Shown one piece after another: positions 5,573 through 46,277 of a stretch of 49,773 bases of DNA; the stretch's first letter is position 1; the number at the start of each line of letters is the position of its first letter. The stretch is from a phage. Where the stretch lies: sequence record PZ715804.1. One strand, written 5' to 3'. Both the position numbers and the translations under genes were made by a program. The notes below the pieces were generated by a model, which was not told the DNA's origin, did not search any database, and saw only the letters and a list, made by a program, of their open reading frames with translations.

Positions 5573-5593
5573 AATATAAACTCCTTAAGTAAA

Positions 5594-5611
5594 TAGCACG
5601 AATTGCTAAAC
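5594..5611. promoter_or_regulatory. motif copy (TAGCACGAATTGCTAAAC) immediately upstream, on the opposite strand, of the tail fibre RBS
   Basis: Motif lies 8-25 nt from the AAGGAG RBS of the minus-strand tail fibre gene. Confidence 0.4.
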
Positions 5612-5652
5612 ACAGATTTTATCATCGCGCCATGAGTCTTGCAACGGGCAAC

Positions 5653-5672: not shown

Positions 5673-6608
5673 TTAAAGTAGGTCGCTTGCTGAGAATAAT
5701 TTGGCTTGCATTCCTGAGCGGTATCCTCCCGGATTTGGGATGATTATCTTTAATTGTCGATCGTCAGCCATATATAGTGTTTCTTTGTCTGAAGGCTCGC
5801 ACGCCACCCGCATCTCCCGATCCCCATTGTATCTGTAAGCAACCATTTCGAGATTTTCAGGAGTGAAGCAGGCCCATACTTCTTGCTTTGTGTGAAATGC
5901 AATATGCTGAGCATCAATCCAGTTCAGGCATAAGTAGATCGCCTTTTCTGTTTTACCAGTCACGGCAACCGAGCAACTCGTGTATTTCTTCGCGTAAAAT
6001 GATTCTCTTCCTTCCTCATCAATAATCAAAATATTGCAAAACTCGTCATCAAGCCCGTCCTCGTGTACAAGTTGACACGGGATAGTGTGAAATAACGATT
6101 CCCCGCCATCCTCTCGGCGTTTTACGCCAACGTCGAATGATTCAGTAGGAAGAGACTCAAACACGCTTAGAGGAGTGTTTACGCGCTTCTCTGTGCGCTC
6201 CATGACTTTCATCACCGCTTCATGATCTGCCATCATGACATTGACACCCGATACCGGAGTCCGGCGCGCTTTCTTGTTTGCCTTGACGATGTATTCCTGC
6301 GGAACTTTTCCGAGAAATCTTCCCAGGATATTTATGCATTCGCTATACGGCATACCAGTTAATTTCATCAACCAACCTATCCCGGAGTCGTTACCGCATG
6401 AGTTGCAGATTGCACCGCCGTCTCCTGGGGTATTCAGATTGTCTGTCCAGCGAAAACGGTCTTTACCTCCACAGTTAGGGCAAGGTTGATGCTTCTTGTT
6501 GAATACCTCGTTAGGTAATCCGCATAATGACTGGAATGCATCTCGCCATAACCCCTTCATATACGGCAAGACGTCCTCTTTCTGAAACATCATAAACTCT
6601 TCGTTCAC
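5673..6608 (-). CDS. putative DNA primase (zinc-ribbon primase-like)
   Basis: 311 aa; GTG start with GGAG RBS; CPNCGGKDRFRW...CNSCG zinc-ribbon typical of phage/plasmid primases. Confidence 0.5.
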   Translation of the reverse strand: MNEEFMMFQKEDVLPYMKGLWRDAFQSLCGLPNEVFNKKHQPCPNCGGKDRFRWTDNLNTPGDGGAICNSCGNDSGIGWLMKLTGMPYSECINILGRFLGKVPQEYIVKANKKARRTPVSGVNVMMADHEAVMKVMERTEKRVNTPLSVFESLPTESFDVGVKRREDGGESLFHTIPCQLVHEDGLDDEFCNILIIDEEGRESFYAKKYTSCSVAVTGKTEKAIYLCLNWIDAQHIAFHTKQEVWACFTPENLEMVAYRYNGDREMRVACEPSDKETLYMADDRQLKIIIPNPGGYRSGMQAKLFSASDLL

Positions 6609-6664: not shown

Positions 6665-6686
6665 TGTTTTAACTAAAAATGCTATT
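6665..6686 (-). promoter_or_regulatory. motif copy (minus orientation) encoding the last codons and stop of the HTH gene
   Basis: Minus-strand reading AATAGCATTTTTAGTTAAAAC; followed by terminator then primase RBS. Confidence 0.4.
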
Positions 6687-7121
6687 TGTCGTTCCAATAT
6701 CTTCCTTCTTCACGACCCGCATAAACTTCTTGTTTTTGCAGCGCTTCTCAAGGCACTTTCCGTTCCCATCAAACTTCAGATCGAATCGCAGCCATGCGGC
6801 CCGAAATCCTTTGCAACCCTGTCGGCGATAAGCACGATGCGCCGCTTCAGCGCCTTGCCAGGAAATCATATTTCGATCCTTCCAACCTTGAACCGTCTGA
6901 TTGCTAACTTTCAGAGCCTTTGCACAAGCCGCCGGACCACCATAATATTCAATAAGAGCATCCAATCGCGCTCTCAGTCCTGCGCGCGTTTCTTCTTTAT
7001 GGATATAAAATCCGCAGCGCTGGCGAGGCTTTTTATCTTTACCGCGTCGCGTTCCGTTGTTACCATTGATGTGACGTTTATCGATTTCACCAGTAGACTC
7101 TGCGATACGTTTCATATTCAT
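6669..7121 (-). CDS. putative DNA-binding protein (Cro/YdaS-like HTH)
   Basis: Start at internal Met (MNMKRIAE) with GGAGAA RBS; HTH-like AACAKALKVSNQTVQGWKDRNMIS; basic; C-terminus ...TNSIFS* is encoded by the repeated motif. Confidence 0.4.
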   Translation of the reverse strand: MNMKRIAESTGEIDKRHINGNNGTRRGKDKKPRQRCGFYIHKEETRAGLRARLDALIEYYGGPAACAKALKVSNQTVQGWKDRNMISWQGAEAAHRAYRRQGCKGFRAAWLRFDLKFDGNGKCLEKRCKNKKFMRVVKKEDIGTTNSIFS

Positions 7122-7134
7122 ATTAATTCTCCTG

Positions 7135-7177
7135 TAGCACTTTTTGCTAAAAACGTTTACTGTATGCCGTGTATTAT
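7135..7177 (+). promoter_or_regulatory. motif-spacer-(-10) cassette upstream of helicase
   Basis: TAGCACTTTTTGCTAAAAAC, 22 nt spacer, TATTAT. Confidence 0.5.
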
Positions 7178-7215
7178 ATCGTAAACGATACAACGATTCA
7201 AAGGATTAAATAGCC

Positions 7216-9234: not shown

Positions 9235-9647
9235 TTACAGACAAAGGTGGTTATTTAGAATTTTACGAGAGAGATCCAAGCGACACTCGAAAGGAGGACG
9301 CTCATCAGGTGGATTGTGTATCCTGGCTGAAATACAATTTTCCTCACCTTCTATTTTGGCACACTGTCAATGAAGGTGAAAAAACAATCACATCGGCGCT
9401 CAGGGATGAGCAGGCCGGATTACTTAAAGGCGTGTCAGACTTCGTTATCCTGATTGGTGTTAACTCACGATACCCGTTTGCAGCAATCGAACTTAAGCGG
9501 GTTAATAAGTCAGGCAAAGGAAAGGCGTCACCAGTCAGCGACAAGCAAAGGGAATTTCTCCAAAAGGTCCGGGAGCGTGGCGGCTTCTCTGCCGTCGCAT
9601 ACGGATTCGGGCAATTCAAGATCGCAATTTACGAAATGATGAAATAG
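9231..9647 (+). CDS. VRR-NUC domain nuclease
   Basis: 138 aa; PD-(D/E)XK-type motifs VSDFVILIG ... AIELKRVN ... KQREFL; start overlaps helicase stop (ATGA). Confidence 0.6.
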   Translation: MITDKGGYLEFYERDPSDTRKEDAHQVDCVSWLKYNFPHLLFWHTVNEGEKTITSALRDEQAGLLKGVSDFVILIGVNSRYPFAAIELKRVNKSGKGKASPVSDKQREFLQKVRERGGFSAVAYGFGQFKIAIYEMMK

Positions 9648-9687
9648 CACTTTTTGTTAAAACTGCCGGGATGGAATCTGGCATTAT
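9645..9687 (+). promoter_or_regulatory. motif-spacer-(-10) cassette upstream of dam
   Basis: TAGCACTTTTTGTTAAAAC (TAG is the stop of the VRR-NUC gene), 22 nt spacer, CATTAT. Confidence 0.5.
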
Positions 9688-10428: not shown

Positions 10429-10676
10429 TGAGCGAAAAAATGGTTACTATTAAATTAACTGAGCAAGGTTTATGGCTTCTTTATCGCGCTACGTGCTGCG
10501 AGATTATGGAGCGAAACGGATTGACTAATGATGTTATTGGTTGCGATCTGTGGGAGTTCACTAGTTCTCTTGATATGTCTTTCGATGAGATAAAAAATGA
10601 ATACATAGAGAATTGGCCTTCAATCATACAGAGAGACGTAGAGGAACTTAAAGCTGATATGATCGTTCAGCACTAA
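10425..10676 (+). CDS. hypothetical protein
   Basis: 83 aa from ATG overlapping Dam stop (ATGATG) behind GAGGAAAG RBS; stop TAA lies inside a motif copy. Confidence 0.45.
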   Translation: MMSEKMVTIKLTEQGLWLLYRATCCEIMERNGLTNDVIGCDLWEFTSSLDMSFDEIKNEYIENWPSIIQRDVEELKADMIVQH

Positions 10677-10710
10677 TTGCTAAAACTACCCGGCGAAAGT
10701 CGGGTATAGT
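10669..10710 (+). promoter_or_regulatory. motif-spacer-(-10)-hairpin cassette
   Basis: AGCACTAATTGCTAAAAC, 22 nt spacer, TATAGT; imperfect hairpin CCCGGC...GTCGGG. Confidence 0.5.
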
Positions 10711-11512: not shown

Positions 11513-12664
11513 ATGTCACAAGCTAAAATCACTACCGAACAACTTGTCGAAGAGCGCATGAACGGCCTAACACTTCGCGAGATCGCGGAAAAGTACGGTA
11601 TGCACATTCGAACTGTTGAAGCTCGCCACGCAAAGTTGGCAAAAGAAGGTCACTTCCACGGTAACGAGCATGTTGCTAAGAACGTACCGGAAGGATTCAT
11701 GGTAAAAGGCACATCAACGATGATTCGCGGCGATGGGACCGAGGTGGTGCGCTGGGTTAAGACCGATCAGGACCGTGAGAAGATTGCAGCAATGATGGAA
11801 GCGGCGCGTATTGCATTCTGTGAAGATCTGCCGCGAGCAAAGCCAACTGAGCTACTAACCTCACAAGGGCTTACGACAGCGATGGGTAAGCTGGCACTCT
11901 ATCCGGTATTCGATCTTCATATTGGCGCGCTTGCTCATAAGCATGAATGCGGAGAGAACTATTCTACCGATGTGGCGGAAAAAGTGCTGAGTGACTTCTT
12001 TAATTACGCGATCGATATTGCTCCGAACGCAGAGAAGGCTGTTCTGTTAATCGGCGGTGACTTCCTGCACTCTGACGGACTTGATGCAGTTACTCCGGCA
12101 AGCGGTCACGTTCTTGATCAGGATTCACGATATGCAAAATTGGTGCATGTAGCTATTCGATCTGTTCGTCGCGCTATCGACAAAATGCTGACTAAACACA
12201 AAGAGGTCGAAGTTCAGGTTGTCGAAGGAAACCACGACCAGGCCGGGATGATTTGGTTGCGCGCCGCAATGGCTGCATACTATGAAGACGAGCCGAGAGT
12301 ATTCGTTGACGTAAGCCCTATGGTTCTACATAAGACTCGCTGGGGAAATACTTTGCTTGGATATACTCACGGTCACACGATGAAAAAGGCAGAGACTCGA
12401 CTCGCAGCTATGGCAGCAGATTTCCGCGCAGATTTTGGTGAAAGCAAATACGTGTACACGCATAGCGGACACTGGCATCATCAGACAATCACTGAACACT
12501 CGTTAGGTATTGATGAGGTTCACGGGCAGTTAGGCGCGAAAGATGCATACGCCGCGCGAGGTGGGTGGCGCTCATATCGCCAGGCGGCGGTAATCGTTTA
12601 CGATAAACAGTTTGGTGAAATCGGTCGATTCATATATCGTCCAGAAATGACAGGATCGCACTAA
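11513..12664 (+). CDS. calcineurin-like metallophosphoesterase with N-terminal HTH-like region
   Basis: 383 aa; phosphoesterase motifs VFDLHIG, GGDFLHSDG, VEGNHDQ; N-terminal LTLREIAEKYGMHIRTV. Confidence 0.5.
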   Translation: MSQAKITTEQLVEERMNGLTLREIAEKYGMHIRTVEARHAKLAKEGHFHGNEHVAKNVPEGFMVKGTSTMIRGDGTEVVRWVKTDQDREKIAAMMEAARIAFCEDLPRAKPTELLTSQGLTTAMGKLALYPVFDLHIGALAHKHECGENYSTDVAEKVLSDFFNYAIDIAPNAEKAVLLIGGDFLHSDGLDAVTPASGHVLDQDSRYAKLVHVAIRSVRRAIDKMLTKHKEVEVQVVEGNHDQAGMIWLRAAMAAYYEDEPRVFVDVSPMVLHKTRWGNTLLGYTHGHTMKKAETRLAAMAADFRADFGESKYVYTHSGHWHHQTITEHSLGIDEVHGQLGAKDAYAARGGWRSYRQAAVIVYDKQFGEIGRFIYRPEMTGSH

Positions 12665-12698
12665 TCGCTAAAAACTCCCGAAGGGATTCGGGTATAGT
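12658..12698 (+). promoter_or_regulatory. motif-spacer-(-10)-hairpin cassette
   Basis: GCACTAATCGCTAAAAAC, 22 nt spacer, TATAGT; hairpin CCCGAA...TTCGGG. Confidence 0.5.
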
Positions 12699-13021: not shown

Positions 13022-13237
13022 ATGAAAGAATTTTTAACAGCGGCTACGTCAAGCACGGGTGGTGCTTCGTTGGTGGGGGCGGCGACAGGGCAGCTTTATA
13101 TTGCTGGCGCTACATTCATTTGCTTTCTGCTTTTTGGTGCATGGGGCGCATACTGGAAGTATCGTGATAGTAAGGCAATTCAGGAAGCGTTAAACGATGG
13201 CGATCTAAATAAGGCGCTTAAGATTAGGGGGATATAA
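13022..13237 (+). CDS. putative holin
   Basis: 71 aa; hydrophobic segment [21 protein letters not shown] then charged tail; directly precedes endolysin. Confidence 0.55.
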
Positions 13238-16257: not shown

Positions 16258-16302
16258 ATGATACACCGTCAATGGTACACGCGTTTTGCAAAAAGTGCTA
16301 TT
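16258..16302 (-). promoter_or_regulatory. motif-spacer-(-10)-hairpin cassette (minus strand) upstream of the DUF3987-like ATPase gene
   Basis: Minus-strand reading TAGCACTTTTTGCAAAAC, 22 nt spacer, TATCAT. Confidence 0.5.
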
Positions 16303-16721: not shown

Positions 16722-16801
16722 TGCGTTCGCTCCTGATTGGTTATCTTGAATAAGGTCACTTTATCAAATGACCTTACGGCAATATTAACAAATCGTGCTA
16801 T

Positions 16802-17014: not shown

Positions 17015-17239
17015 TTAGCTCCACGAATTAATGTAAATCGAGTTAGCCTCAAGCGTTGCACGAACGTCCGCATCTGTTGCATTTATCAGTCGAGGGCCTG
17101 GCACGCTTCCGATAACACTATTTCCGTTACGTGTCTTAGTTACCGTCATTGAAATAAAGCCTGAAGACTTATCCATTTTCACAACTACACGGCCTTTTGC
17201 GTTCAAGTGCTTGATGATATTCTCAACTTTAATGCTCAT
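17015..17239 (-). CDS. hypothetical protein
   Basis: 74 aa; AAAGGA RBS. Confidence 0.5.
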   Translation of the reverse strand: MSIKVENIIKHLNAKGRVVVKMDKSSGFISMTVTKTRNGNSVIGSVPGPRLINATDADVRATLEANSIYINSWS

Positions 17240-17455
17240 TTTAATTCCTTTGTTTCGTTTGGTGTGGGAGTAATATACCTCACTCCCTGGTGTGTGTCTT
17301 TAGCAATTTGTGCTATCAGTACTCAGAAATTACTTTGCACTCTTTGATTGTTCCTCCTAGCACTGATTTCTGCATCATTGCTTTTTGGCGACTATCGTAA
17401 ACGCGAACATTTTTTACGCTATTAAACTTGCCTGTATAAAAGGTGTGAACATAAA

Positions 17456-18388: not shown

Positions 18389-18433
18389 ACTATACCAGCC
18401 CTCCCGCATTTTCGTTTAGCAAAAAGTGCTATT
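18389..18433 (-). promoter_or_regulatory. motif-spacer-(-10) cassette (minus strand)
   Basis: Minus-strand reading TAGCACTTTTTGCTAAAC, 22 nt spacer, TATAGT; then GAGGAAAG RBS. Confidence 0.5.
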
Positions 18434-18819: not shown

Positions 18820-18852
18820 TTTGTTTTTCCTCAATCTCGTTTCGATGAGGTA

Positions 18853-18898
18853 ATTATGCCAAATCACACCGATCGAGTTTTAACAAAAAGTGCTATTT
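18853..18898 (-). promoter_or_regulatory. motif-spacer-(-10) cassette (minus strand)
   Basis: Minus-strand reading TAGCACTTTTTGTTAAAAC, 22 nt spacer, CATAAT; motif also encodes the Dcm-like C-terminus. Confidence 0.5.
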
Positions 18899-19616: not shown

Positions 19617-19662
19617 ATCATACCCTGCCAGCCTGACCAAATCGTTAGCAAAAAATGCTATT
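19617..19662 (-). promoter_or_regulatory. motif-spacer-(-10) cassette (minus strand) upstream of the Dcm-like gene
   Basis: Minus-strand reading TAGCATTTTTTGCTAAC, 22-23 nt spacer, TATGAT; then CCAATCAGAGGA RBS. Confidence 0.45.
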
Positions 19663-20276
19663 CCAATAGTTGCTCATTATTCCATCATCAATGGAATATC
19701 TGGAATAATTACGATCCCGATTGATCTCGAATGATGAAATGTGATTGTTGCATGGCGTGCAACTGTTGATGTGATTATTGCTTAGAATGCAATGATTGTG
19801 AGAGGGAGAATTTAGTGTTACCCGGTTCGCCTGGTGGTCATCTCCATTTTTAGCAAAACGTGCTATTCGTCTATGCGGTAGTTGTAATTGTCGTAATAGT
19901 TGTATACCATCAGGGGTGTTACAAAATGGCCCGAGAATCGATAGGCCTATAGATAATAAAATATCTATATATAATAATAAGATAGATAATATATATTTAT
20001 TTATTTATTATATTATATATTGGTATGTAATCGGCGTAATAGGTGCAACCGCATTTTTTGAGGGTGGCATATATTTCGTGATGCATAGTATAAAAAACAT
20101 ACTATTCCGCGCGCATAAATAGATGTGCTTGCTTTTATAGAAAAAGTCGGTTGCATCGGTTGCACTGGTTACAAAAATAAAAAATGCAGCTATAGACATT
20201 GACGCGCCTGACGTTGTAGCTGTAACATGTTTTTCGAAGTTGAAAGTTACACCCATAGACAACGAGGTATAGACAA
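19663..20276. promoter_or_regulatory. repeat-rich intergenic control region between divergent early blocks, with AT-rich core (about 19938-20018) and three ATAGACA words (20192, 20255, 20269)
   Basis: No convincing ORF; short palindromes (TTCCAT-N5-ATGGAA, GTTGCATGGCGTGCAAC), repeated TGATGTGATT words, about 80 bp of almost pure A/T. Confidence 0.5.
19847..19869 (-). promoter_or_regulatory. motif copy (minus orientation) with no downstream gene, at the edge of the AT-rich control region
   Basis: Plus-strand TTTTTAGCAAAACGTGCTATTCG. Confidence 0.35.
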
Positions 20277-21013: not shown

Positions 21014-21028
21014 TCGCTGAGCGGTAAA

Positions 21029-21071
21029 TAGCACTTTTTGTTAAAGCCCGGTCGAGAGGATCGGGTATTAT
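21029..21071 (+). promoter_or_regulatory. motif-spacer-(-10)-hairpin cassette
   Basis: TAGCACTTTTTGTTAAAG, 22 nt spacer, TATTAT. Confidence 0.5.
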
Positions 21072-21300: not shown

Positions 21301-21771
21301 ATGGCGACCATTACCGTATTCCTGGCTAAAGATGAGCTTGATGGCGAAATGTCATTCTTCGCGTTTGAGCACAAGACAGGATCGCACTGGCATACGTACA
21401 CTCACTACACGGTCATATCAATTGAGGCGTACGATGACGAACTGCTCACTGACAAACTGAGTAATTTCATTGAAGCCGTTAAAGCTAGCGGCGGCTGCGA
21501 GTGGAAGGAAGATCACGAAGTTATGCGAATGTTTGAGATGGTCAATCCGGTTCGCCTTGAGTCGTTCGAACTTGATGCTGATGTGACTATCAAGGTGAGA
21601 AAGTCGGGTGAGCTATTGCCAGGGATGCGTGTGCTGACTGGTTACTCGGGCCGTAAGGTGTGGCGCACTGTATCTAAGATTCGCCAGCGTTCGGCAACAT
21701 GCTATAGCGTATTCTTTGATGATGGTTGGAATATGATGTCAGGCAGTGAGGTAAAGTATCTCACCAAATAG
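21301..21771 (+). CDS. hypothetical protein
   Basis: 156 aa; stop TAG is the first triplet of a motif copy. Confidence 0.55.
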   Translation: MATITVFLAKDELDGEMSFFAFEHKTGSHWHTYTHYTVISIEAYDDELLTDKLSNFIEAVKASGGCEWKEDHEVMRMFEMVNPVRLESFELDADVTIKVRKSGELLPGMRVLTGYSGRKVWRTVSKIRQRSATCYSVFFDDGWNMMSGSEVKYLTK

Positions 21772-21817
21772 CACTAATTGTTAAAACAGGATCGGGGTAT
21801 CTTGCTATAGTTACCCC
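21769..21817 (+). promoter_or_regulatory. motif-spacer-(-10)-hairpin cassette
   Basis: TAGCACTAATTGTTAAAAC, 22 nt spacer, TATAGT in hairpin GGGGTA...TACCCC. Confidence 0.55.
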
Positions 21818-21849
21818 ATCAAAACGAGATACCAATCAGAGGATTCACC

Positions 21850-22600: not shown

Positions 22601-22792
22601 ATGGCTGATTTTATGCACCAAATGATTGCAGTATTCAAAGGTAGTGATGACCAGGAAGTGAAAGAGTGCTTTACCGTTGACAAGCCTTATAACGCGTCAC
22701 TAACCAGCTTCGGGAATATCTCATTGCTTGATGATAATGGCGATCCCTGGATATTCGATGAAGATACGGATTGCTTCGAAATTAAAGAATAG
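22601..22792 (+). CDS. small acidic hypothetical protein
   Basis: 63 aa; stop TAG is the first triplet of a motif copy. Confidence 0.45.
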   Translation: MADFMHQMIAVFKGSDDQEVKECFTVDKPYNASLTSFGNISLLDDNGDPWIFDEDTDCFEIKE

Positions 22793-22838
22793 CACTTTTT
22801 GTTAAAACGCGTTCATGGGGTTGCGATATAGTAACCCC
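22790..22838 (+). promoter_or_regulatory. motif-spacer-(-10)-hairpin cassette
   Basis: TAGCACTTTTTGTTAAAAC, 22 nt spacer, TATAGT in hairpin GGGGTT...AACCCC. Confidence 0.55.
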
Positions 22839-22863
22839 ATCAACAACGAAACGAGGATTTACC

Positions 22864-23081: not shown

Positions 23082-23570
23082 ATGAAAATTAAATTACTTT
23101 GCACTGGCGGTTACAAAGGATTTACTCGCGACCTGGAAGCCGACCCAATTATCGTTGACGCGGTGAAGTGCGATGATAGCCTGGGAGGCTACCGCGTCAA
23201 GGTCGATGACCTGGTTAAAGCTGGCGTGTACGATCTGGATTACGGCTTGCGAGTTATCCCTGAAGTTGGCCCGGCAGACTTTAACGAGAAAGACGGAACG
23301 ATGTTCTTTTTTGATTGGGAAGTTCAAGAGAACGTCAAGCCTCGTAAGGTTCGACTTCTCAACAATGGCGGCTACCCGATGAGACCAGGTTATGAGAATC
23401 GCACGTTCCCAGTTATTGTGGACTTCACCGAAATCACTAACAACCTTGTCTACGTTAGCCATGAGCAACTTAAGGCTGTTGGATTTGTTGGTGGCATGCA
23501 TAAAGAAGCGCTTTGCTTCGTTCGAGAAGAAATGCACGGTTACTATTCTGAGTGTGAGCTAGTCTACTAA
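23082..23570 (+). CDS. hypothetical protein (N-terminal MKxxKC-type domain)
   Basis: Start at internal Met (MKIKLLCTGGYKGF) behind GAGGA RBS. Confidence 0.5.
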   Translation: MKIKLLCTGGYKGFTRDLEADPIIVDAVKCDDSLGGYRVKVDDLVKAGVYDLDYGLRVIPEVGPADFNEKDGTMFFFDWEVQENVKPRKVRLLNNGGYPMRPGYENRTFPVIVDFTEITNNLVYVSHEQLKAVGFVGGMHKEALCFVREEMHGYYSECELVY

Positions 23571-23615
23571 GCACGAATTGTTAAAAGGGGATTTGGCCTG
23601 ACTGGTATAATCCCC
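23570..23615 (+). promoter_or_regulatory. motif-spacer-(-10)-hairpin cassette
   Basis: AGCACGAATTGTTAAAAG, 22 nt spacer, TATAAT in hairpin GGGGATT...AATCCCC. Confidence 0.55.
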
Positions 23616-24127: not shown

Positions 24128-24276
24128 TGGCTGCATGGGTTTTGATTATCTTGATGAGTACCGGGCCGGATCACGTATACATGGAAAGCCAACAATCATG
24201 CAATAAGGCACGGGAAGTTATCGCAGAGAATAAGCCGTTCGGGTACGAAGTAAAAACAATGTGCGTTAAACGATAG
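24127..24276 (+). CDS. small hypothetical protein
   Basis: 49 aa, not in track; start overlaps previous stop; stop TAG begins a motif copy. Confidence 0.3.
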   Translation: MAAWVLIILMSTGPDHVYMESQQSCNKAREVIAENKPFGYEVKTMCVKR

Positions 24277-24320
24277 CACGAATTGCTAAACCTTCCGAAA
24301 GGCCATTTGTTATAATGGCC
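24274..24320 (+). promoter_or_regulatory. motif-spacer-(-10)-hairpin cassette
   Basis: TAGCACGAATTGCTAAAC, 22 nt spacer, TATAAT in hairpin GGCCAT...ATGGCC. Confidence 0.55.
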
Positions 24321-24356
24321 TTATTGAAGCAAGGCAACCAATCAGAGGAATAGGAT

Positions 24357-25633: not shown

Positions 25634-25836
25634 CAACGGAAGATGCAGCGCGTGACGCAGTGGAAGGGATGCGCCCAAATACCTCCAGAATCGCACACTA
25701 CTACAATTTTGACGTGTCGGCAGTGCAACTGGTCCATGAAATTTTAAGGCTTCCACAAGTCGATTCAGCGCGCGTGGTGACGTGCTTAAAAAATTATTTT
25801 TGCATCACTATTAAAACGAATAGCACGAATTGCTAA
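25618..25836 (+). CDS. hypothetical protein
   Basis: 72 aa; C-terminus ...TNSTNC* read through the repeated motif. Confidence 0.4.
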   Translation: MATIMTTEDAARDAVEGMRPNTSRIAHYYNFDVSAVQLVHEILRLPQVDSARVVTCLKNYFCITIKTNSTNC

Positions 25837-25868
25837 AACCTATCAAGGGGAATGCGCTATGATTCCCC
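25821..25868 (+). promoter_or_regulatory. motif-spacer-(-10)-hairpin cassette
   Basis: TAGCACGAATTGCTAAAAC, 22 nt spacer, TATGAT in hairpin GGGGAAT...ATTCCCC. Confidence 0.55.
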
Positions 25869-25893: not shown

Positions 25894-26340
25894 ATGAAAC
25901 ATTTGATTTGCATTGAAACGCCTAACGATGAATACACCCTGCACGGCATCGGAATGTTCAAAGGTCACTACATGACAGCAAGCATTTATGATGCGCGTCG
26001 CGGCGATGGCGATCTGATGATTAACTCAAAAGAGGTTAATCCGTACATCATGCAGAATCTTGGAAATAACGAATATATGGCCTACGGCTGCAATGCGGTG
26101 TACAAGAATATCAAGATCCGCAAGCGCGTCGTGCGAGCATTCAAGAAGATTGCAATGAAATACTGGAAAATGAGCAAGAAAGATGCCGGACGTTGGGCGC
26201 GCAACGTTGCAGATTCATACTTCTATCGTAACGGCGAATCCTGCTACTTTCTGATCGATGAGCTTATGGAAAACTACGGTGGCGACTTCAGTCAGGGTAG
26301 CTTTGACGCCTGGGCTGACTACGAGGTCGATTACTGGTAA
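25894..26340 (+). CDS. hypothetical protein
   Basis: Start at internal Met (MKHLICIET) behind GAGGGAA RBS, downstream of cassette 25821-25868. Confidence 0.5.
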   Translation: MKHLICIETPNDEYTLHGIGMFKGHYMTASIYDARRGDGDLMINSKEVNPYIMQNLGNNEYMAYGCNAVYKNIKIRKRVVRAFKKIAMKYWKMSKKDAGRWARNVADSYFYRNGESCYFLIDELMENYGGDFSQGSFDAWADYEVDYW

Positions 26341-26387
26341 TAGCACGAATTGCTAAAACTTGCTCAAGGGCATTTGATAGAATGCCC
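26341..26387 (+). promoter_or_regulatory. motif-spacer-(-10)-hairpin cassette
   Basis: TAGCACGAATTGCTAAAAC, 22 nt spacer, TAGAAT in hairpin GGGCAT...ATGCCC. Confidence 0.55.
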
Positions 26388-26423
26388 TTCGTTGAGTTAA
26401 GCAACCAATCAGAGGAATAAATC

Positions 26424-27143: not shown

Positions 27144-27716
27144 ATGAAAACAGCTATCATTTTAAACGGTGCGCCTGGCGCGGGAAAAGACACTATAGGG
27201 TGCATCCTGGCTGACACTTACGATCATGTAGCGCTACGCAGCTTTAAAGCTCCAATGTTTGAGATTGCCCGAGCAATCCTGGGTGAGACTAATTTTGAGT
27301 ATTTCATGTTCTTGTATGAGGACCGTCGCTATAAAGAAGAGCCAGCATCAATCCTGAACGGTAAAAGCCCGCGCCAGTTTATGATCTGGATTAGCGAGGA
27401 GGTTATCAAGCCGCAGTTCGGAAATCGCTTCTTCGGTATGCGAGCGGAAAGCAAGGTGAAAGAGTCTCACTCCCTTTCGGTATTTACTGACGGTGGATTC
27501 AAAGACGAAATCTTGCAGATGATTGAAGGTGAAATCCAGGTCAAGCTATGTCGAATCCATCGCAACGGTTGCAACTTTGACAACGACAGTCGCGACTACA
27601 TCTATCTTGACGATATGATCGGGGTCAACGGTTATCAGGAATGTGACTTCTTCTCTGTCGAAGGTCATCCAGAAATTACCGCTCAGCACATAGCCGCCAC
27701 GTTCATCAACAAATAG
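27144..27716 (+). CDS. P-loop kinase (nucleotide or polynucleotide kinase-like)
   Basis: 190 aa; Walker A GAPGAGKDT at N-terminus; stop TAG begins a motif copy. Confidence 0.6.
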   Translation: MKTAIILNGAPGAGKDTIGCILADTYDHVALRSFKAPMFEIARAILGETNFEYFMFLYEDRRYKEEPASILNGKSPRQFMIWISEEVIKPQFGNRFFGMRAESKVKESHSLSVFTDGGFKDEILQMIEGEIQVKLCRIHRNGCNFDNDSRDYIYLDDMIGVNGYQECDFFSVEGHPEITAQHIAATFINK

Positions 27717-27762
27717 CACGAATTGCTAAAACGTCGGTGGGGTGACTTGATATAGTTACCTC
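27714..27762 (+). promoter_or_regulatory. motif-spacer-(-10)-hairpin cassette
   Basis: TAGCACGAATTGCTAAAAC, 22 nt spacer, TATAGT in imperfect hairpin. Confidence 0.55.
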
Positions 27763-27788
27763 ATCGACAACGAAGAGAGAAAATCGAA

Positions 27789-29524: not shown

Positions 29525-29544
29525 ATGCCTGCAATATGGTAAAA

Positions 29545-29563
29545 TAGCACTAAATGTTAAACA
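29545..29563 (+). promoter_or_regulatory. motif copy directly upstream of the small terminase RBS (start of late operon)
   Basis: TAGCACTAAATGTTAAACA then AAAGAGGA RBS; follows strong terminator. Confidence 0.4.
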
Positions 29564-35560: not shown

Positions 35561-36287
35561 AAATATTTCTGATACTTCAACCTACAATATTGATGGAGCT
35601 TGTGTGGCTCAAGGTGACATTGGGTTCGGCTCAGCGGTTCAGGTTGTAGGCATCGTTGACGGTGTAAAAGTTGTGGCGGCGCTTCCTGATGGTGGAACTC
35701 CTTACGGTATCGCTTTCCGTTCCCAATATGAACACCTGAGCGGTAAAATCCTTGACGGTGAAGTGTGCAACGTCGTTTCTCACGGTCGCGTATGGACTCT
35801 TACTTCTCTTGGTGAGGCTCCCAGCTTGTTCTCAAAGTTACAGTTTGGGTCTGGTGGAGTTGTTACTGGTGGATCTGGTTCCGCAGGTTGGACATTTGCG
35901 GGTGGCTTTGTTAAGCATGAAGATGGCTACATCATTGAGGTTCAGGTGAAACAAAATGCTTTCATCGCTCCACCGCCACCGCCCCCTGTCGTTCTTGTTG
36001 AATCTGCTACAATCGCCACTGACAAGGAAAGCCCTCAACCAAACAATGTTACGATCCAGTGTGTAGCTAATGCTCTTCCGGATAATGCAACCGATAAGAC
36101 TGGTAAATGGTCAATCGACGCTACCAATATCGCCACTGTCGATCCGGACTCAGGTCTTGTAACTCCTGTTGGTGGAGAGGTAGTCGGTGATTTCAATATT
36201 ACCTGGACGGCTAACGATGCCAGCAAGACGACGGCAACTATTGCTTATCGCGTAGAAGCAGTGCCAACGCCAGAGGTTGATGCATAA
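35520..36287 (+). CDS. capsid accessory/decoration-like protein (paralog 2) with C-terminal Ig-like domain
   Basis: Start at ATG in second copy of a 55 bp tandem duplication; paralogous N-terminal core; PPPPPP linker then Ig-like segment. Confidence 0.45.
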   Translation: MAYENLFLRPACPGNISDTSTYNIDGACVAQGDIGFGSAVQVVGIVDGVKVVAALPDGGTPYGIAFRSQYEHLSGKILDGEVCNVVSHGRVWTLTSLGEAPSLFSKLQFGSGGVVTGGSGSAGWTFAGGFVKHEDGYIIEVQVKQNAFIAPPPPPPVVLVESATIATDKESPQPNNVTIQCVANALPDNATDKTGKWSIDATNIATVDPDSGLVTPVGGEVVGDFNITWTANDASKTTATIAYRVEAVPTPEVDA

Positions 36288-36307
36288 CATAAAAACACTT
36301 TGACGCT

Positions 36308-36327
36308 TTAACAAAAAGTGCTATTAT
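36308..36327 (-). promoter_or_regulatory. motif copy in inverted orientation upstream of the major capsid gene
   Basis: Plus-strand TTTAACAAAAAGTGCTATTA, the reverse complement of the motif; a hairpin with CATAAT loop follows. Confidence 0.4.
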
Positions 36328-36330
36328 TGA

Positions 36331-36358
36331 AGCCGTGAACATAATCACGGCTTTTTTA
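36331..36358 (+). terminator. terminator before the major capsid gene
   Basis: AGCCGTGA-ACATAA-TCACGGCT then TTTTTT. Confidence 0.65.
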
Positions 36359-36378
36359 TTAACTACGGAGAAGTAATC

Positions 36379-37338
36379 ATGACTACTAAAAAATTTGATG
36401 AAGCAGATAAAAGCAATGTTGAAATGTATCTGATCCAGGCTGGCGTAAAACAGGATGCAGCCGCAACGATGGGTATCTGGACCGCTCAGGAACTACACCG
36501 CATCAAGAGTCAGTCCTATGAAGAAGACTACCCGGTCGGCTCCGCTCTACGAGTATTCCCGGTTACAACCGAACTCTCTCCGACCGACAAGACGTTTGAG
36601 TACATGACCTTTGATAAGGTTGGTACTGCTCAGATTATCGCTGACTATACCGATGACCTGCCTCTGGTTGATGCACTTGGTACTTCTGAATTTGGTAAGG
36701 TGTTCCGTTTGGGTAACGCGTATCTGATCTCAATCGACGAAATCAAAGCAGGTCAGGCAACTGGTCGCCCACTGTCAACCCGTAAGGCGAGCGCGTGCCA
36801 GTTGGCGCATGATCAGCTTGTTAACCGCCTGGTGTTCAAAGGTTCCGCACCGCACAAGATTGTGTCCGTGTTTAACCATCCGAACATCACTAAAATTACC
36901 TCCGGTAAGTGGATTGATGCATCTACTATGAAGCCGGAAACTGCGGAAGCTGAGCTAACTCAAGCGATCGAAACCATCGAGACGATTACTCGGGGTCAGC
37001 ACCGCGCAACCAACATCCTGATCCCGCCTTCCGTTCGTAAGGTTTTGGCGATTCGTATGCCTGAGACAACCATGTCTTATCTGGACTATTTTAAGTCTCA
37101 GAACTCCGGTATCGAAATCGACTCTATCGCAGAGCTTGAGGATATTGACGGCGCAGGCACCAAAGGCGTACTGGTGTACGAAAAGAATCCGATGAACATG
37201 TCCATCGAGATCCCGGAAGCATTTAATATGCTGCCAGCACAACCGAAAGACTTGCACTTTAAAGTGCCTTGCACTTCTAAGTGTACTGGTCTTACAATTT
37301 ATCGCCCGATGACTATTGTCTTAATCACTGGCGTGTAA
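36379..37338 (+). CDS. major capsid protein (putative)
   Basis: 319 aa; position and size; strong RBS; flanked by terminators. Confidence 0.6.
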   Translation: MTTKKFDEADKSNVEMYLIQAGVKQDAAATMGIWTAQELHRIKSQSYEEDYPVGSALRVFPVTTELSPTDKTFEYMTFDKVGTAQIIADYTDDLPLVDALGTSEFGKVFRLGNAYLISIDEIKAGQATGRPLSTRKASACQLAHDQLVNRLVFKGSAPHKIVSVFNHPNITKITSGKWIDASTMKPETAEAELTQAIETIETITRGQHRATNILIPPSVRKVLAIRMPETTMSYLDYFKSQNSGIEIDSIAELEDIDGAGTKGVLVYEKNPMNMSIEIPEAFNMLPAQPKDLHFKVPCTSKCTGLTIYRPMTIVLITGV

Positions 37339-37345
37339 TATTATA

Positions 37346-37372
37346 GGGGCTAACTTAGTTAGTCCCTTTTTT
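37346..37372 (+). terminator. terminator-RBS junction after the major capsid gene
   Basis: 9 bp stem with one G-U then TTTTTT then ATTGGAGAAA. Confidence 0.65.
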
Positions 37373-37387
37373 ATTGGAGAAATCAAA

Positions 37388-37675
37388 ATGGCTAAAGAAA
37401 AAACTGTTGTTATCGTAAACGTTGGTGTAGCTCTTCAGATGTTCCGTCTTGAAGATGGTTCCTTTGCTAAAGTTCTTCCAGATGAAGAGGTCACGCTTCC
37501 GGCGTCCGTTCTTGATTTGCCTGGCCTGCGTTGCTTAATTGCTCGCGAAGAAATCGAAGTTAAAGACGACAGTGCAACCAACCGCAAAATCCGCGCTGAA
37601 ATGGCAAAGATCACTAAGCCAGATCCGTGGGATAGCAAAAGCGTTAAAGAGCTTGAGGACGGCGGCGAATATTAA
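37388..37675 (+). CDS. hypothetical head-associated protein
   Basis: 95 aa between two terminator-RBS junctions. Confidence 0.5.
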   Translation: MAKEKTVVIVNVGVALQMFRLEDGSFAKVLPDEEVTLPASVLDLPGLRCLIAREEIEVKDDSATNRKIRAEMAKITKPDPWDSKSVKELEDGGEY

Positions 37676-37681
37676 TCATCA

Positions 37682-37706
37682 AGGCGCTCATGTAGCGCCT
37701 TTTTTT
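37682..37706 (+). terminator. terminator-RBS junction
   Basis: AGGCGCT-CATGT-AGCGCCT then TTTTTT. Confidence 0.7.
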
Positions 37707-37719
37707 ATGGGGGGTAATT

Positions 37720-38130
37720 ATGAATCAAGAAACTTTAATTGCAGCTGTTGAGCAAATGCGAAAGCTGGTTCCGGCACTTCGTAAGGTTCCAGACGAAACG
37801 CTTTATGCGTGGGTAGAAATGGCTGAGCTTTTTGTATGCCAGAAGACCTTTAAAGACGCATACGTCAAAGCGATCGCTCTTTATGCATTACACCTTGCTT
37901 TCCTTGATGGGGCGCTAAAAGGTGAAGATGAGGATCTGGAATCGTACTCACGCCGCGTTACGTCATTCTCACTGAGCGGTGAATTTAGCCAGACTTTCGG
38001 AGAGGTTACGAAGAACCAGTCAGGGAACATGATGCTTTCTACGCCGTGGGGTAAGATGTTCGAACAGCTTAAAGCGAGACGCCGTGGTAGATTCGCATTA
38101 ATGACAGGACTCCGTGGAGGATGCCACTAA
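37720..38130 (+). CDS. head-tail connector protein (gp6-like, putative)
   Basis: 136 aa; position; N-terminal pattern LIAAVEQMRKLVPALRKVPDE. Confidence 0.45.
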   Translation: MNQETLIAAVEQMRKLVPALRKVPDETLYAWVEMAELFVCQKTFKDAYVKAIALYALHLAFLDGALKGEDEDLESYSRRVTSFSLSGEFSQTFGEVTKNQSGNMMLSTPWGKMFEQLKARRRGRFALMTGLRGGCH

Positions 38131-38501
38131 TGAACTACTCACAGATTGAAAGAATGGCTCGCAAAGGCGTGGCTTTCTTCACCGATCCGTCAAGACCTAT
38201 GAACCTGATAAAACAAGGTGAATACGGATATGATGAAAACGGATTCGAGATCCCACCGATGGAACAGGTTATTCCAATATCCGGCGCGACGAGAAGACCG
38301 AACGCGCGTGAGATTGACGGGGAAACTATCCGCACCTCAGATATTTTGGGGATCTTCAATAATGATCATGAAATAAACGAAGGTGACTATATAGAGATTG
38401 ATGGCATTCGTCATGTTGTCGTTGATGCTCGCCCGGTTCAGGCGTCACTGGAACCAGTTGCCTATCGTCCAGTGTTGCGGAGGGTATCAGTCGGTGGCTA
38501 A
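38121..38501 (+). CDS. head-tail adaptor / head closure protein (putative)
   Basis: 126 aa; position. Confidence 0.4.
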   Translation: MPLMNYSQIERMARKGVAFFTDPSRPMNLIKQGEYGYDENGFEIPPMEQVIPISGATRRPNAREIDGETIRTSDILGIFNNDHEINEGDYIEIDGIRHVVVDARPVQASLEPVAYRPVLRRVSVGG

Positions 38502-38937
38502 TTATCAGATTCGTAGATTTCAAGGCGAGATTGATGCGTGGATTAAGGCAGCTGAAAGCACGTTAGAACATGCCATTGAGATATTCGTAAGGGATGTTCA
38601 CGACGCTCTTGTTAGCCGCTCCCCTGTTGATACAGGTCGATTCAAGGGTAACTGGCAGATAACTTTTAACGAAATCCCTAACCACGCATTAAACCGATAC
38701 GATAAAACTGGCAGTGTCGTAAGAGGTGAGGAGCAGGCCAAAACTTATGGCATGTTCAGCCGTGGCGGCGCGATAACATCAGTTCACTTTTCAAACATGT
38801 TGATTTATGCAAACGCTCTTGAGTACGGTCATTCACAGCAAGCACCGAGCGGAGTTGTCGGTCTTGTGGCATTAAGGCTGAGATCATATATGGCTGACGC
38901 AATCAAGCAGGCAAGGAGACAGCAAAATGCACTATGA
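38494..38937 (+). CDS. HK97 gp10-like tail completion protein (putative)
   Basis: GTG start overlapping previous stop (GTGGCTAA); motif SRSPVDTGRFKGNW. Confidence 0.55.
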   Translation: MANYQIRRFQGEIDAWIKAAESTLEHAIEIFVRDVHDALVSRSPVDTGRFKGNWQITFNEIPNHALNRYDKTGSVVRGEEQAKTYGMFSRGGAITSVHFSNMLIYANALEYGHSQQAPSGVVGLVALRLRSYMADAIKQARRQQNAL

Positions 38938-39325
38938 GTTATCAGCGGCGGCGCGAGCCGCTTTTCTATCAAAGTACAGAAACTTTCCTCACTACATGGA
39001 AAACAGAAATTTCACACCTCCTAAGGATGGCGGCATGTGGCTGAGGTTCAACTACATTGAGGGGGATACGCTTTATCTATCCATTGACAGAAAGTGTAAA
39101 TCTTACATCGCAATCGTTCAGATCGGCGTAGTGTTCCCTCCAGGCTCCGGCGTTGACGAAGCAAGATTGAAGGCAAAAGAGATTGCTGATTTTTTCAAAG
39201 ATGGTAAAATGCTTAACGTTGGTTATATTTTCGAGGGTGCAATCGTGCATCAAATTGTTAAACATGAAAGCGGGTGGATGATTCCGGTTCGCTTTACAGT
39301 ACGAGTAGACACAAAGGAGACTTAA
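38927..39325 (+). CDS. tail terminator-like protein (putative)
   Basis: 132 aa; position before major tail protein. Confidence 0.35.
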   Translation: MHYELSAAARAAFLSKYRNFPHYMENRNFTPPKDGGMWLRFNYIEGDTLYLSIDRKCKSYIAIVQIGVVFPPGSGVDEARLKAKEIADFFKDGKMLNVGYIFEGAIVHQIVKHESGWMIPVRFTVRVDTKET

Positions 39326-39326
39326 T

Positions 39327-39995
39327 ATGCACTTACCAAATGGCGCGCAAATTTTCGTGGAAACCTCTCGCGGAGAAGAGATAGAGGCGACCGCTGTCAC
39401 TAACGAAAAAAATCCTGTTGCTACAGTTGCATCTAAAGGTGACTTAGTAAAAGGTGATTACGTTATTGTAACTCAGTCAACTTGGGCTAAGATGGTTAGT
39501 CGAGTACTAATTGTTACTGACGCTCAGGAAACAAGTATTACTCTTGCTGGAATTGACACTACTGATACTCTTGTTTTCCCGGCTGGCGGTACAATGAGCT
39601 TTGCAAAAGTTACTGGTTGGACTGAGATCCCTTGCGTACAGGAGATTGGTCAGGACGGCGGCGAGCAGCAGTATTACACTTATCAGTGTTTGTCCGACGA
39701 TAAAGAACAGCAGATCCCTACGTTTAAATCTGCAATCTCGCTAACGTACACCTTCGCGCACGAATTTGATAACCCTATCTATCCTATTCTGCGTAAGCTG
39801 GATTCTTCTGGTCAGGTAACTGCGGTTCGGATGTATGTTCCAAAAGCGAACGAGATGCGCATGTGGGCTGGTATCTTGTCTTTTAACGACATTCCGTCTA
39901 CGCAAGTAAACGAAATGGAAACGGTACAACTAGCTGTATCCCTGAAAGGTGACTTTACTTTCATCTCATCCACTCTGGCATCGCCTGGTGCTTAA
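39327..39995 (+). CDS. major tail protein (putative)
   Basis: 222 aa; AAGGAG RBS; position immediately before chaperone pair and tape measure. Confidence 0.55.
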   Translation: MHLPNGAQIFVETSRGEEIEATAVTNEKNPVATVASKGDLVKGDYVIVTQSTWAKMVSRVLIVTDAQETSITLAGIDTTDTLVFPAGGTMSFAKVTGWTEIPCVQEIGQDGGEQQYYTYQCLSDDKEQQIPTFKSAISLTYTFAHEFDNPIYPILRKLDSSGQVTAVRMYVPKANEMRMWAGILSFNDIPSTQVNEMETVQLAVSLKGDFTFISSTLASPGA

Positions 39996-40007
39996 ATACC
40001 ATCCATA

Positions 40008-40034
40008 GGGGGCTTGCGTCCCCTTATTCATTTC
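40008..40034 (+). terminator. terminator after the major tail protein gene
   Basis: GGGGGC-TTGC-GTCCCC (one G-U) then U-rich tract. Confidence 0.5.
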
Positions 40035-40069
40035 TGTAAAATCATCCTATCAACTCTATTCACTTAACT

Positions 40070-40089
40070 TTTAACAAAAAGTGCTATCA
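40070..40089 (-). promoter_or_regulatory. motif copy in inverted orientation abutting the tail chaperone RBS
   Basis: Plus-strand TTTTAACAAAAAGTGCTATC then CCAATCAGGAG RBS. Confidence 0.4.
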
Positions 40090-40108
40090 ACCAATCAGGA
40101 GAAACATC

Positions 40109-40426
40109 ATGGCTAAATTCAATTTCGTGTTGGGCCAGCTTCCAGACTTCAAACTTCCGGTGACGTTCACCATGCCAAACGGCGAGGATGCAACTATTAT
40201 TTTTACAGTGCGCCACCTTTCCAGTAAAGAAGTGCAAGATATGTATGCGAAGCAGGGCGAAATGAATGATAGCGATTTCATCACTAAGATCGCGTCAGGC
40301 TGGAATCTGGAAGAAGAATTTAACGAAGAGAATACGCGTAAACTGGTACAGTATTATCCTTCCGCAGCGTACAACCTGACGGCAACTTACATCAAGGCGC
40401 TCGCCGGACACCGCGCAAAAAACTAA
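40109..40426 (+). CDS. tail assembly chaperone (lambda G-like, zero-frame product)
   Basis: 105 aa; ends at TAA 40424-40426 directly after slippery A_AAA_AAC. Confidence 0.7.
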   Translation: MAKFNFVLGQLPDFKLPVTFTMPNGEDATIIFTVRHLSSKEVQDMYAKQGEMNDSDFITKIASGWNLEEEFNEENTRKLVQYYPSAAYNLTATYIKALAGHRAKN

Positions 40427-43657: not shown

Positions 43658-44011
43658 ATGGCGACACTTGACACTTTCAGTTGGTGTACGCAGGTTCAAG
43701 GGGGCGGCGGCTCCCTTACCACTACCAACAATGACAGATCCATACAGTTTGGAAACGGCCACATGCAGCTTGCATCTTCTGGATTTAACACCACGCGACG
43801 CGAGTATTCAGTTGTCTATGCTGGGGAAGATTTCATGGCTGTTTACGACTTCTGTGATTCTCACCGCATTAAACCTTTCGCATGGACGCCGCCGGACGGG
43901 AAGATCGGAATATGGGTTGTTAAGCCTAACAGCCTGGGCGCGAAGCCAGTATCACGCGACGTGATGGAAATTAATGTCACGTTTATGGAGCAGTTTACAT
44001 CTATGGAATAG
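43658..44011 (+). CDS. distal tail protein (lambda gpM homolog)
   Basis: 117 aa; FGNGHMQ ... YSVVY ... KPFAWTPP pattern matches lambda M. Confidence 0.8.
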   Translation: MATLDTFSWCTQVQGGGGSLTTTNNDRSIQFGNGHMQLASSGFNTTRREYSVVYAGEDFMAVYDFCDSHRIKPFAWTPPDGKIGIWVVKPNSLGAKPVSRDVMEINVTFMEQFTSME

Positions 44012-44027
44012 CACTTCATGACAAAAG

Positions 44028-46229: not shown

Positions 46230-46277
46230 CGCCTGTATAATGAGTCCACTGATAAATAGCACAAAAAGGTAAACATC

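Follow-up and report, generated by a model that had tools for sequence, protein, structure and literature searches.

A marbox-like repeat in predicted early and late promoters of a T1-like phage

The phage stretch PZ715804.1 (49.8 kb) belongs to a T1-like siphovirus of the genus Tunavirus, family Drexlerviridae, and carries a short repeated motif both in front of early gene cassettes and, partly in inverted form, in the leaders of late structural genes. This distribution raises the question of what kind of signal the motif represents and what could read it. The term window is used below for the whole stretch of 49,773 nucleotides. An earlier inspection, called here the sequence-only reading, had noticed the motif near several late genes and had proposed a shared regulatory or RNA-level signal, which a dimeric protein could recognise in either orientation. 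The region from 36000 to 40200 is 99.8% identical to Escherichia phage JMPW1 and 96.2% identical to T1, and the gene names used in this study (major head, tape-measure chaperone, tail fibre, J-like, gpM-like and small terminase) were taken from the collinear records of T1 and U136B. For comparison we used five genomes from four lineages with capsid identities down to 51%, namely the window, T1, U136B (Tlsvirus), KP36 (Webervirus) and ACG-M12 (Braunvirinae).

The box in early promoters and its match to the marbox

The 8-mer AATAGCAC occurs 18 times on both strands of the window, compared with 1.91 expected occurrences, and none of 100 dinucleotide shuffles reached 18. The shuffled-sequence control that the sequence-only reading had named for this 8-mer was thereby passed. 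The full repeat unit is a block of about 20 nt with the consensus ATAGCAC-N3-TTGYTAAAAC, hereafter called the box, and a position-weight scan located about 30 copies in the window. Among these copies the T-tract is freely swapped for GAATT or TAATT. Each of the five genomes contains 14 to 20 perfect boxes, where about one is expected.

The box is linked to a -10-like hexamer by a nearly fixed distance. Such a hexamer is found exactly 18 nt 3' of the box for 69 of the 92 perfect boxes in the five genomes, compared with 1.8 expected per offset (binomial P about 1e-96; the genomes are not phylogenetically independent, and all four lineages agree). Analysis of 92 unique modules revealed a spacer of 18 nt in 80 cases, of 19 nt in seven and of 17 nt in five; an A is located 7 nt past the -10 in 74 modules, and an extended -10 (TGn) is present in 39. 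The approximately 20 early copies of the window share a layout consisting of box, 18 nt, TAnnnT, 5 to 6 nt, CA(T), about 20 nt, Shine-Dalgarno sequence (SD) and start codon, with TATAGT as the commonest -10 hexamer. A -35 hexamer at a distance of 16 to 18 bp is missing in these modules, and the TTGYTA within the box lies 22 bp from the -10. Relative to the predicted start site the box covers positions -51 to -32 with its centre at about -41.5, and its orientation is strictly tied to the downstream -10, being forward in all modules. Judged by these features, the early and middle modules are predicted sigma70-type promoters with a conserved box in place of the -35 element, at about 20 per genome.

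Phages of the T1/TLS type seemed to have almost no recognisable promoters, and the authors of the TLS study found just three of the sigma70 type (PMC11447400). In line with this, a generic scan for sigma70 promoters returned a number of hits equal to the shuffle expectation. Both results can be explained by the replacement of the -35 element by the box, and a class II marbox with a -10 at 18 nt would supply the missing promoter class of these phages.

The element itself has been published. A 21-nt repeat of the Drexlerviridae with the consensus aaATAGCACnnnTTGnTAAAA was described in 2024 for phage TLS by Kropinski, Misra and coworkers and was also reported in T1, Rtp and Rogue1 (PMC11447400). 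TLS contains 21 copies, 18 of them intergenic, which point the same way as transcription and precede the start codons by about 76 nt (PMC11447400). The window repeat shares this consensus and likewise has many intergenic copies; the TLS repeat, with about 18 to 21 copies, is the same element. The early modules fit the rule of orientation and distance, but the late copies do not, as those at the capsid, chaperone and fibre genes are inverted and those at the terminase and J-like genes adjoin the ribosome-binding site (RBS). The function was left as an explicit open question for T1-like phages, with a stoperator, an enhancer or an UP element as suggestions; intragenic copies were ignored, and the inverted copies, the fixed 18-nt link to the -10 and the match to the marbox described below are not mentioned (PMC11447400). 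A text search of the literature for the repeat sequence turned up no later functional study, and a literature search found no paper that links marboxes or MarA/SoxS/Rob to T1-like phages. The reading of the box as a class II marbox and of the late copies as sites in operator position appears to be new.

The marbox is the binding site of the Escherichia coli regulators MarA, SoxS and Rob, and two consensus sequences are available from the Grainger laboratory, GCAnnWWnTGnnAAA (PMC12052159) and GCAHWWWWTGYYAAA (PMC6900184). The first has 20 perfect matches in the window compared with 0.97 expected, a number reached by none of 100 shuffles, and the second has 12 compared with 0.05 expected. The phage boxes vary at the degenerate positions of the marbox (n, W, Y) and are invariant at its fixed positions; G4, C5, C7 and G13 of the box are invariant or nearly so.

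The geometry agrees as well. In class II promoters of the mar/sox/rob regulon a forward marbox overlaps the -35 with its centre between -36 and -55, at about -41 in the case of micF. We read the micF promoter of strain K-12 directly and found ACAGCACTGAATGTCAAAAC, 18 nt, TAGAAT, 7 nt and the start site. Aligned with the phage box ATAGCACGAATTGCTAAAAC, it shows the same 20-bp frame, forward orientation, overlap with the -35 and distance of 18 bp to the -10, so that the phage modules, with centres at about -41.5, have the class II geometry with the spacing of micF. The density of sites is extreme in comparison with the host, with about 20 perfect sites in 50 kb of phage DNA versus about 35 by computed chance on both strands of a 4.6-Mb genome, and the phage boxes are much closer to the consensus than typical degenerate host marboxes.

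The symmetry of the box was analysed in the 92 unique modules, since a partly palindromic TAGCA...TGCTA core had been taken to allow binding of a dimer in both orientations. Positions 7 and 11, each about 90% conserved, are complementary in none of the 92 modules, positions 1 and 17 in six and positions 4 and 14 in 52. In 40 of the 92 boxes the half-palindrome TAGCA/TGCTA, which spans just 4 to 5 bp, is broken at position 14. The box is intrinsically asymmetric and not a dimer palindrome, and together with the coupling of its orientation to the -10 this speaks against the proposed dimeric recognition. MarA binds as a monomer to an asymmetric, oriented marbox (PMC6900184), and the asymmetry and orientation of the phage box fit a monomeric, oriented reader such as MarA/SoxS/Rob. 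We conclude that the box is, by sequence, orientation and spacing, indistinguishable from an E. coli marbox and is a predicted protein-binding site.

The TLS authors had suggested an element of the UP type, and the box could also be regarded as a displaced -35 that is contacted by the C-terminal domain of the RNA polymerase alpha subunit and by sigma, without any specific factor. Its location at -51 to -32, its partial A/T-richness (a T-tract followed by AAAA) and the TTGYTA are compatible with this, and the 39 modules with an extended -10 may need little help. We consider this explanation very improbable. The best-conserved positions are G or C (GCAC and the G of TG), whereas the UP consensus contains A and T only and has no conserved G/C; the T-tract is freely replaced; the TTGYTA is too far from the -10 for sigma region 4; and backward copies in late promoters would be left unexplained. 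A function of the box as a simple -35 or extended -10 element was rejected on account of the same 22-bp distance and because TGYTAAAAC lacks a T at -7. A site for IHF or Fis was also rejected, as the fit to their consensus sequences was poor by eye. An RNA-level signal, the other possibility raised before, is contradicted by the early boxes, which lie upstream of the predicted start sites, and by the late leaders, which contain copies in both orientations and therefore no consistent RNA form.

Copies of the box in late promoters

The copies at the capsid, chaperone, fibre and small terminase genes that had been noted before are all perfect boxes, apart from small offsets in the coordinates. 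By sequence, the late copies are situated inside or just downstream of canonical predicted sigma70 promoters that are placed after terminators. The predicted capsid promoter (36300-36327, plus strand) consists of TTGACG (36300-36305), a 16-bp spacer and TATTAT (36322-36327). A perfect backward box, ATAGCACTTTTTGTTAAAGC (36305-36324, minus strand), fills this spacer, and its ATA provides the TAT of the -10. The copy does not abut the RBS, as had been assumed, but lies about 40 nt upstream of the SD.

Side-by-side comparison of capsid leaders revealed that the arrangement TTGNNN-N-TTTAACAAAAARTGC-TATNAT was kept in seven genera while the flanks diverged. It is found in Tlsvirus (U136B, CF1), Hanrivervirus, Henuseptimavirus, Nouzillyvirus and, with one mismatch each, Kyungwonvirus and Webervirus AYM; the phages sharing it are U136B, CF1, herni, JohannLBurckhardt, ESCO41, SG01 and AYM. 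The promoter TTGNNN-N16-TATNAT itself is present in all Drexlerviridae examined, including KP36, which has an annotated promoter at this place and a degenerate box.

The second conserved copy belongs to the tail fibre gene on the minus strand. Here the order is terminator, predicted sigma70 promoter (5616-5644, minus strand; TTGCAA at 5644-5639, a 17-bp spacer and TAAAAT at 5621-5616), box and SD. The box (5593-5612, plus strand) is perfect, backward with respect to the gene and separated from the SD by 6 nt. Relative to the predicted promoter it covers about -4 to +16, or about +5 to +25 in a second estimate. A backward box is found at the same place in T1 (one mismatch), U136B and ACG-M12, together with equivalent promoter hexamers, and is hence shared by three subfamilies. 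The idea of one DNA signal shared by early cassettes and late leaders is therefore borne out on both sides, by the fixed position relative to the -10 in about 20 early promoters and by the conservation of the capsid and fibre positions across genera.

One further box at 7134 to 7153 (plus strand) had escaped the sequence-only reading. It is the forward class II box of a predicted helicase promoter with the -10 TATTAT at 7172 to 7177, and at the same time it stands backward between the minus-strand promoter of the regulator gene pir and the adjoining pir RBS (7130-7133). The predicted pir promoter is near-consensus (TTGAAT-17-TATAAT). The two divergent promoters overlap (7122-7215), and the base pairs 7172-7179 belong to both -10 hexamers, one on each strand. 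This layout, in which one box serves both directions, is switch-like and is conserved in U136B, KP36 and ACG-M12.

The remaining copies in late leaders are more restricted. The backward box of the tail chaperone gene (gpG-like; 40068-40087, minus strand) is perfect and located 8 nt upstream of the SD. For the small terminase gene, a forward box that is also perfect (29544-29563, plus strand) occupies about -4 to +16, with a -10-like TATGGT close to a terminator on one side and the RBS on the other. At the J-like tail gene a forward box with one mismatch (46256-46275, plus strand) overlaps the RBS at about +7 to +26 from the TATAAT -10. A box with one mismatch is also found at the gpM stop codon (44008-44027, plus strand), followed by a terminator. 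An immediate contact with the RBS had been claimed for these leaders in general and holds true for the chaperone, fibre, terminase and J-like copies. The terminase, J-like and gpM copies had been described as truncated and turned out to be full 20-nt boxes, and the gpM copy is unconvincing on other grounds, given below. The fourth truncated copy, at 251 to 257, is an AATAGCA 7-mer alone, with three mismatches to the box and no second half, and is probably due to chance.

Copies at the fibre, terminase, J-like and pir genes are thus placed between about -4 and +35 of predicted promoters. A marbox located between -35 and +25 is regarded as repressive whatever its orientation. [quoted passage not shown] MarA-dependent repression has also been published for the rob promoter, whose marbox is reported to lie between the hexamers, and MarA is reported to repress purA and hdeA as well.

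A resemblance to the stoperators of mycobacteriophage L5, an analogy drawn by the TLS authors (PMC11447400), exists in so far as many copies of one asymmetric site are distributed over the genome. L5 stoperators lie within transcribed regions in one orientation, and the prophage repressor stops elongation there. Most copies of the phage box, in contrast, precede a -10 by a fixed distance and are therefore promoter elements, and those in repressor-like positions occur in both orientations.

The inverted copies could also be the forward boxes of minus-strand promoters that produce early antisense RNA against late messages. The chaperone copy has a -10-like TAGGAT (40044-40049, minus strand) at exactly 18 nt, and T1 has TAAGAT at this place. 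This hexamer is weak (4 of 6 positions), and with a background of 0.02 per position and several orphan boxes a single match is unsurprising. Moreover, the conserved capsid and fibre copies have no -10 at 17 to 19 nt in the forward direction of the box, and the chaperone copy is not conserved outside Tunavirus. An antisense function is, on this evidence, the most improbable of the explanations we considered.

Finally, the late copies could be non-functional, either chance matches or remnants of early-type modules that were moved by recombination. This explanation is improbable for the set as a whole, since about one perfect 15-mer is expected per genome while five sit in late or pir leaders, and since the capsid and fibre copies keep their promoter position in seven and four genera, respectively, with diverged flanks. 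It gains support from ACG-M12, where modules accompany moron or HNH genes in the late region and hence seem to move, from the mere 7-mer at 251 to 257 and from the restricted occurrence of several copies. The following points speak against a general role of the late copies as operators. The chaperone copy is confined to Tunavirus (window and T1) and missing in U136B, KP36 and ACG-M12; the terminase copy exists in the window and T1 only; the J-like copy reaches no further than Tlsvirus (U136B, one mismatch), with neither KP36 nor ACG-M12 having it; and T1 lacks the gpM copy at the homologous place. Even the capsid promoter is kept without a box in Braunvirinae and Rogunavirinae. Being limited to certain lineages, the chaperone, terminase and J-like copies may be functional or may be remnants, and the gpM copy is probably fortuitous or decayed.

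Possible readers of the box

Candidates for a reader encoded by the phages were searched in the five genomes. No homologue of MarA, SoxS or Rob was detected among the six-frame open reading frames using phmmer and a small hidden Markov model built from approximate N-terminal sequences of the three proteins; the best E-values (0.088 to 0.44) are noise. A phage-encoded MarA-like protein was rejected on this basis. Pfam returned just a weak Cro/YdaS helix-turn-helix in the homologue of Pir (T1 orf23; 6669-7121, minus strand; phrog_2856). This protein with a single Cro-type helix-turn-helix shows 52 to 55% identity between subfamilies and is the only universally conserved predicted phage regulator in the five genomes. 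The start of its putative recognition helix varies between subfamilies (NQTVQG, LKTVWG, IQVVQQ, HAVVSE), whereas the box does not.

In the reporter assays of Laganenka et al. (2019), P_dam and P_hol were activated by Pir, and P_pir and P_recE were repressed by it; P_orf65 was independent of Pir, and Orf65 activated its own promoter and repressed P_pir (PMC6737242). We mapped the boxes on those T1 fragments and found forward class II boxes in P_dam and P_orf65, a backward box past the -10 in P_pir and no box in P_hol or P_recE. The Pir response does not track the box, because P_orf65 with its perfect box ignores Pir and the boxless P_hol and P_recE respond, which excludes Pir as the sole reader. 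Orf65, for which PHROGs gives no known function, has no homologue in KP36 and ACG-M12, where the box is invariant, and was rejected as a general reader for this reason.

A phage regulator as reader, be it Pir, Orf65 in the T1 lineage or another conserved early protein, with the likeness to the marbox as coincidence or mimicry, is nevertheless a possibility that we take seriously, doubtful as it is. Pir is conserved in all lineages and has its own strong predicted sigma70 promoter with a box in the leader, and the effects of Pir and Orf65 on P_dam, P_orf65 and P_pir are the pattern expected of a phage-encoded reader. Many dimeric class II activators also bind at about -41.5. Besides the discrepancies in the reporter data and the distribution of Orf65, this explanation has to account for a box that is asymmetric, unlike a dimer operator, and that stays invariant while the putative recognition helix of Pir varies. 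A chance match to a 15-nt consensus of about 18 to 22 bits in the right orientation and with the micF spacing is very unlikely, and a repressor made by the phage should not be able to silence the capsid promoter at the moment of infection. If the reader were a phage protein, the exact mimicry of the marbox would itself be notable.

The middle promoters of T4 offer a precedent for a conserved box in place of the -35 in combination with a normal -10. There the box is centred at about -30 and read by the phage protein MotA together with AsiA, in contrast to about -41.5 in the present case. No phage activator was identified, and no search was aimed at homologues of MotA or AsiA.

By elimination and by the match in sequence and geometry, a host regulator of the MarA/SoxS/Rob family is the most economical reader. 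It is the inference we favour, and we give it an even chance of being correct. The reader would then be a pre-existing host protein, Rob, MarA or SoxS (RamA in Klebsiella), and not a phage product. Rob is constitutive and abundant in the host. A factor bound to a forward box at about -41.5 would recruit sigma70 RNA polymerase to the early promoters in the class II manner of micF, and an occupied box in the capsid spacer or in the fibre, pir, terminase and J promoters should block RNA polymerase. One and the same factor would therefore switch early genes on and hold key late promoters off. Being present beforehand, it could act from the very start of infection, both in firing the early promoters and in keeping the strong capsid promoter silent. 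In agreement with a reader present in the host, the box promoter P_dam gave a measurable signal in phage-free cells and in lysate (PMC6737242). The odd inverted copies would be explained as operator-position sites in late promoters.

In its most complete form, this scheme assumes that Rob, boosted by MarA/SoxS in stress and by RamA in Klebsiella, fires about 20 near-consensus promoters at infection and holds the capsid, fibre and pir promoters off. As the genomes multiply, their sites (hundreds of genomes with about 25 sites each) would titrate the factor, shut the early promoters, free the late ones and collapse the mar/sox/rob response of the host. The scheme as a whole is tentative and rather unlikely to hold in every part.

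Several points count against a host reader. The release of late repression, for instance by titration, is speculation. The reporter effects of Pir and Orf65 described above are those of a phage-encoded reader. As a second class II example we inspected the sodA region of K-12, where no clean box at class II distance was found. Position 19 is mostly A in the phage boxes and Y in the 20-mer consensus of the marbox. Furthermore, none of rob, marA and soxS came up when the Keio collection was screened with LL5, a TLS-like phage. This result is weak evidence in view of the redundancy of the three factors, the noise that the authors noted in their screen and the strong or extended -10 elements of many box promoters. 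A scan of IMG/VR for the extended box in unrelated phage families gave 16 isolated single matches and no multi-copy contigs and was uninformative.

If Rob, MarA or SoxS is the reader, a virulent coliphage would be wired into the multidrug-resistance and stress regulon of its host. The efficiency of infection would then vary with the exposure of the host to antibiotic, bile or oxidative stress, and in relatives using TolC the same stress state also raises expression of the receptor. The replicating phage genome could act as a decoy sink for Rob/MarA/SoxS. This would bear on interactions between phages and antibiotics, on therapeutic phages targeting TolC (U136B) and on the control of T1 contamination.

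Individual early modules and accompanying features

On the plus strand, the module before dam comprises a box at 9644 to 9663, 18 nt and a -10 at 9682 to 9687. The other plus-strand modules, all with a spacer of 18 nt, are located at 10667-10710 (TATAGT), 12655-12698 (one-mismatch box, TATAGT), 21028-21071 (TATTAT), 21768-21811 (TATAGT), 22789-22832 (TATAGT), 23568-23611 (TATAAT), 24273-24316 (TATAAT), 25820-25863 (TATGAT, before the orf65 homologue), 26340-26383 (TAGAAT) and 27713-27756 (TATAGT). Modules on the minus strand with the same spacer are found at 16258-16301 (box 16282-16301, TATCAT), 16758-16801 (one-mismatch box, TAAAGT), 18389-18432 (TATAGT) and 18853-18896 (CATAAT), and two with a spacer of 19 nt at 17272-17316 (TATATT) and 19617-19661 (one-mismatch box, TATGAT).

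The stop codon of the upstream gene often lies in or adjoins the 5' end of the box (the TAG of AATAGCAC), as at 21769-21771, within the box of the module starting at 21768, and at 22790-22792, 27714-27716 and 26338-26340. The early cassettes are therefore packed as stop codon, box, hairpin, start site and RBS with nothing to spare.

The hairpin in this series is variable in sequence, has a covarying stem and extends over the spacer, the -10 and the discriminator in most box promoters. In many cases the loop contains the -10, and the 3' arm reaches as far as the predicted start site. Examples are found at 21788-21821, 22809-22842, 24293-24326, 26360-26393 and 27733-27766 on the plus strand and at 16748-16781 and 17263-17296 on the minus strand, and the hairpin is also present in modules of T1, U136B, KP36 and ACG-M12. 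In 97 modules the mean z-score was -2.5, with 69% below -1.5. The sense-strand fold was more stable than the antisense fold in 82 of the 97 modules owing to G-U pairs, which suggests a role in the read-through RNA rather than in DNA, for example as a 3' stabiliser or a signal for processing.

The capsid promoter is followed by a hairpin as well (36329-36356, plus strand). It begins directly after the -10, and the predicted start site lies within its 5' arm, so that transcripts from upstream could terminate there and those initiated at the promoter could not. The structure is conserved, with compensatory changes among genera in five of the eight pairs, and a T-run that gives it the look of a terminator follows in Tunavirus only.

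In the late structural region of ACG-M12, complete forward modules precede inserted small, HNH or moron-like genes (5966-6010, 13125-13170, 17152-17197 and 18846-18891). These insertions suggest that the module is a portable promoter and moves together with gene cassettes.

A very A/T-rich stretch (19940-20030) with repeated TAGATAATA and TATATA units separates the divergent early arms of the window. Nearby are a perfect orphan box in the divergent control region (19847-19866, minus strand) without a -10 at 17 to 19 nt and a promoter-like TTGACG-18-TAACAT independent of the box (20199-20228). The stretch could be an origin or an immediate-early control region.

Another motif, CGTAAACG, is mildly over-represented, with seven occurrences compared with 1.5 expected in the window (1719, 7180, 12595 on the minus strand, 17396, 20959, 22122 and 37414) and four compared with 1.4 in T1 (among them 30355 and 36490). 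It forms an inverted pair around the pir -10 and is present at about +8 of the recE promoter, the two promoters that are repressed by Pir, and judged by this placement it may be the Pir operator.

The motif ACCAATCAG occurs 15 times in the window compared with 0.39 expected, and 11 times in T1, 17 in U136B, 10 in KP36 and five in ACG-M12. Its positions in the window are 2861, 20353, 21831, 24337, 26404 and 40090 on the plus strand and 3748, 7779, 9458, 11270, 16741, 19605, 33367, 45229 and 49346 on the minus strand. Seven of these copies stand directly 5' of an SD (ACCAATCAGAGGA-N7-ATG), including the one in the chaperone leader beside the inverted box. The remaining eight lie within genes, for the most part in antisense orientation, and have the extended form ACCAATCAGRG.

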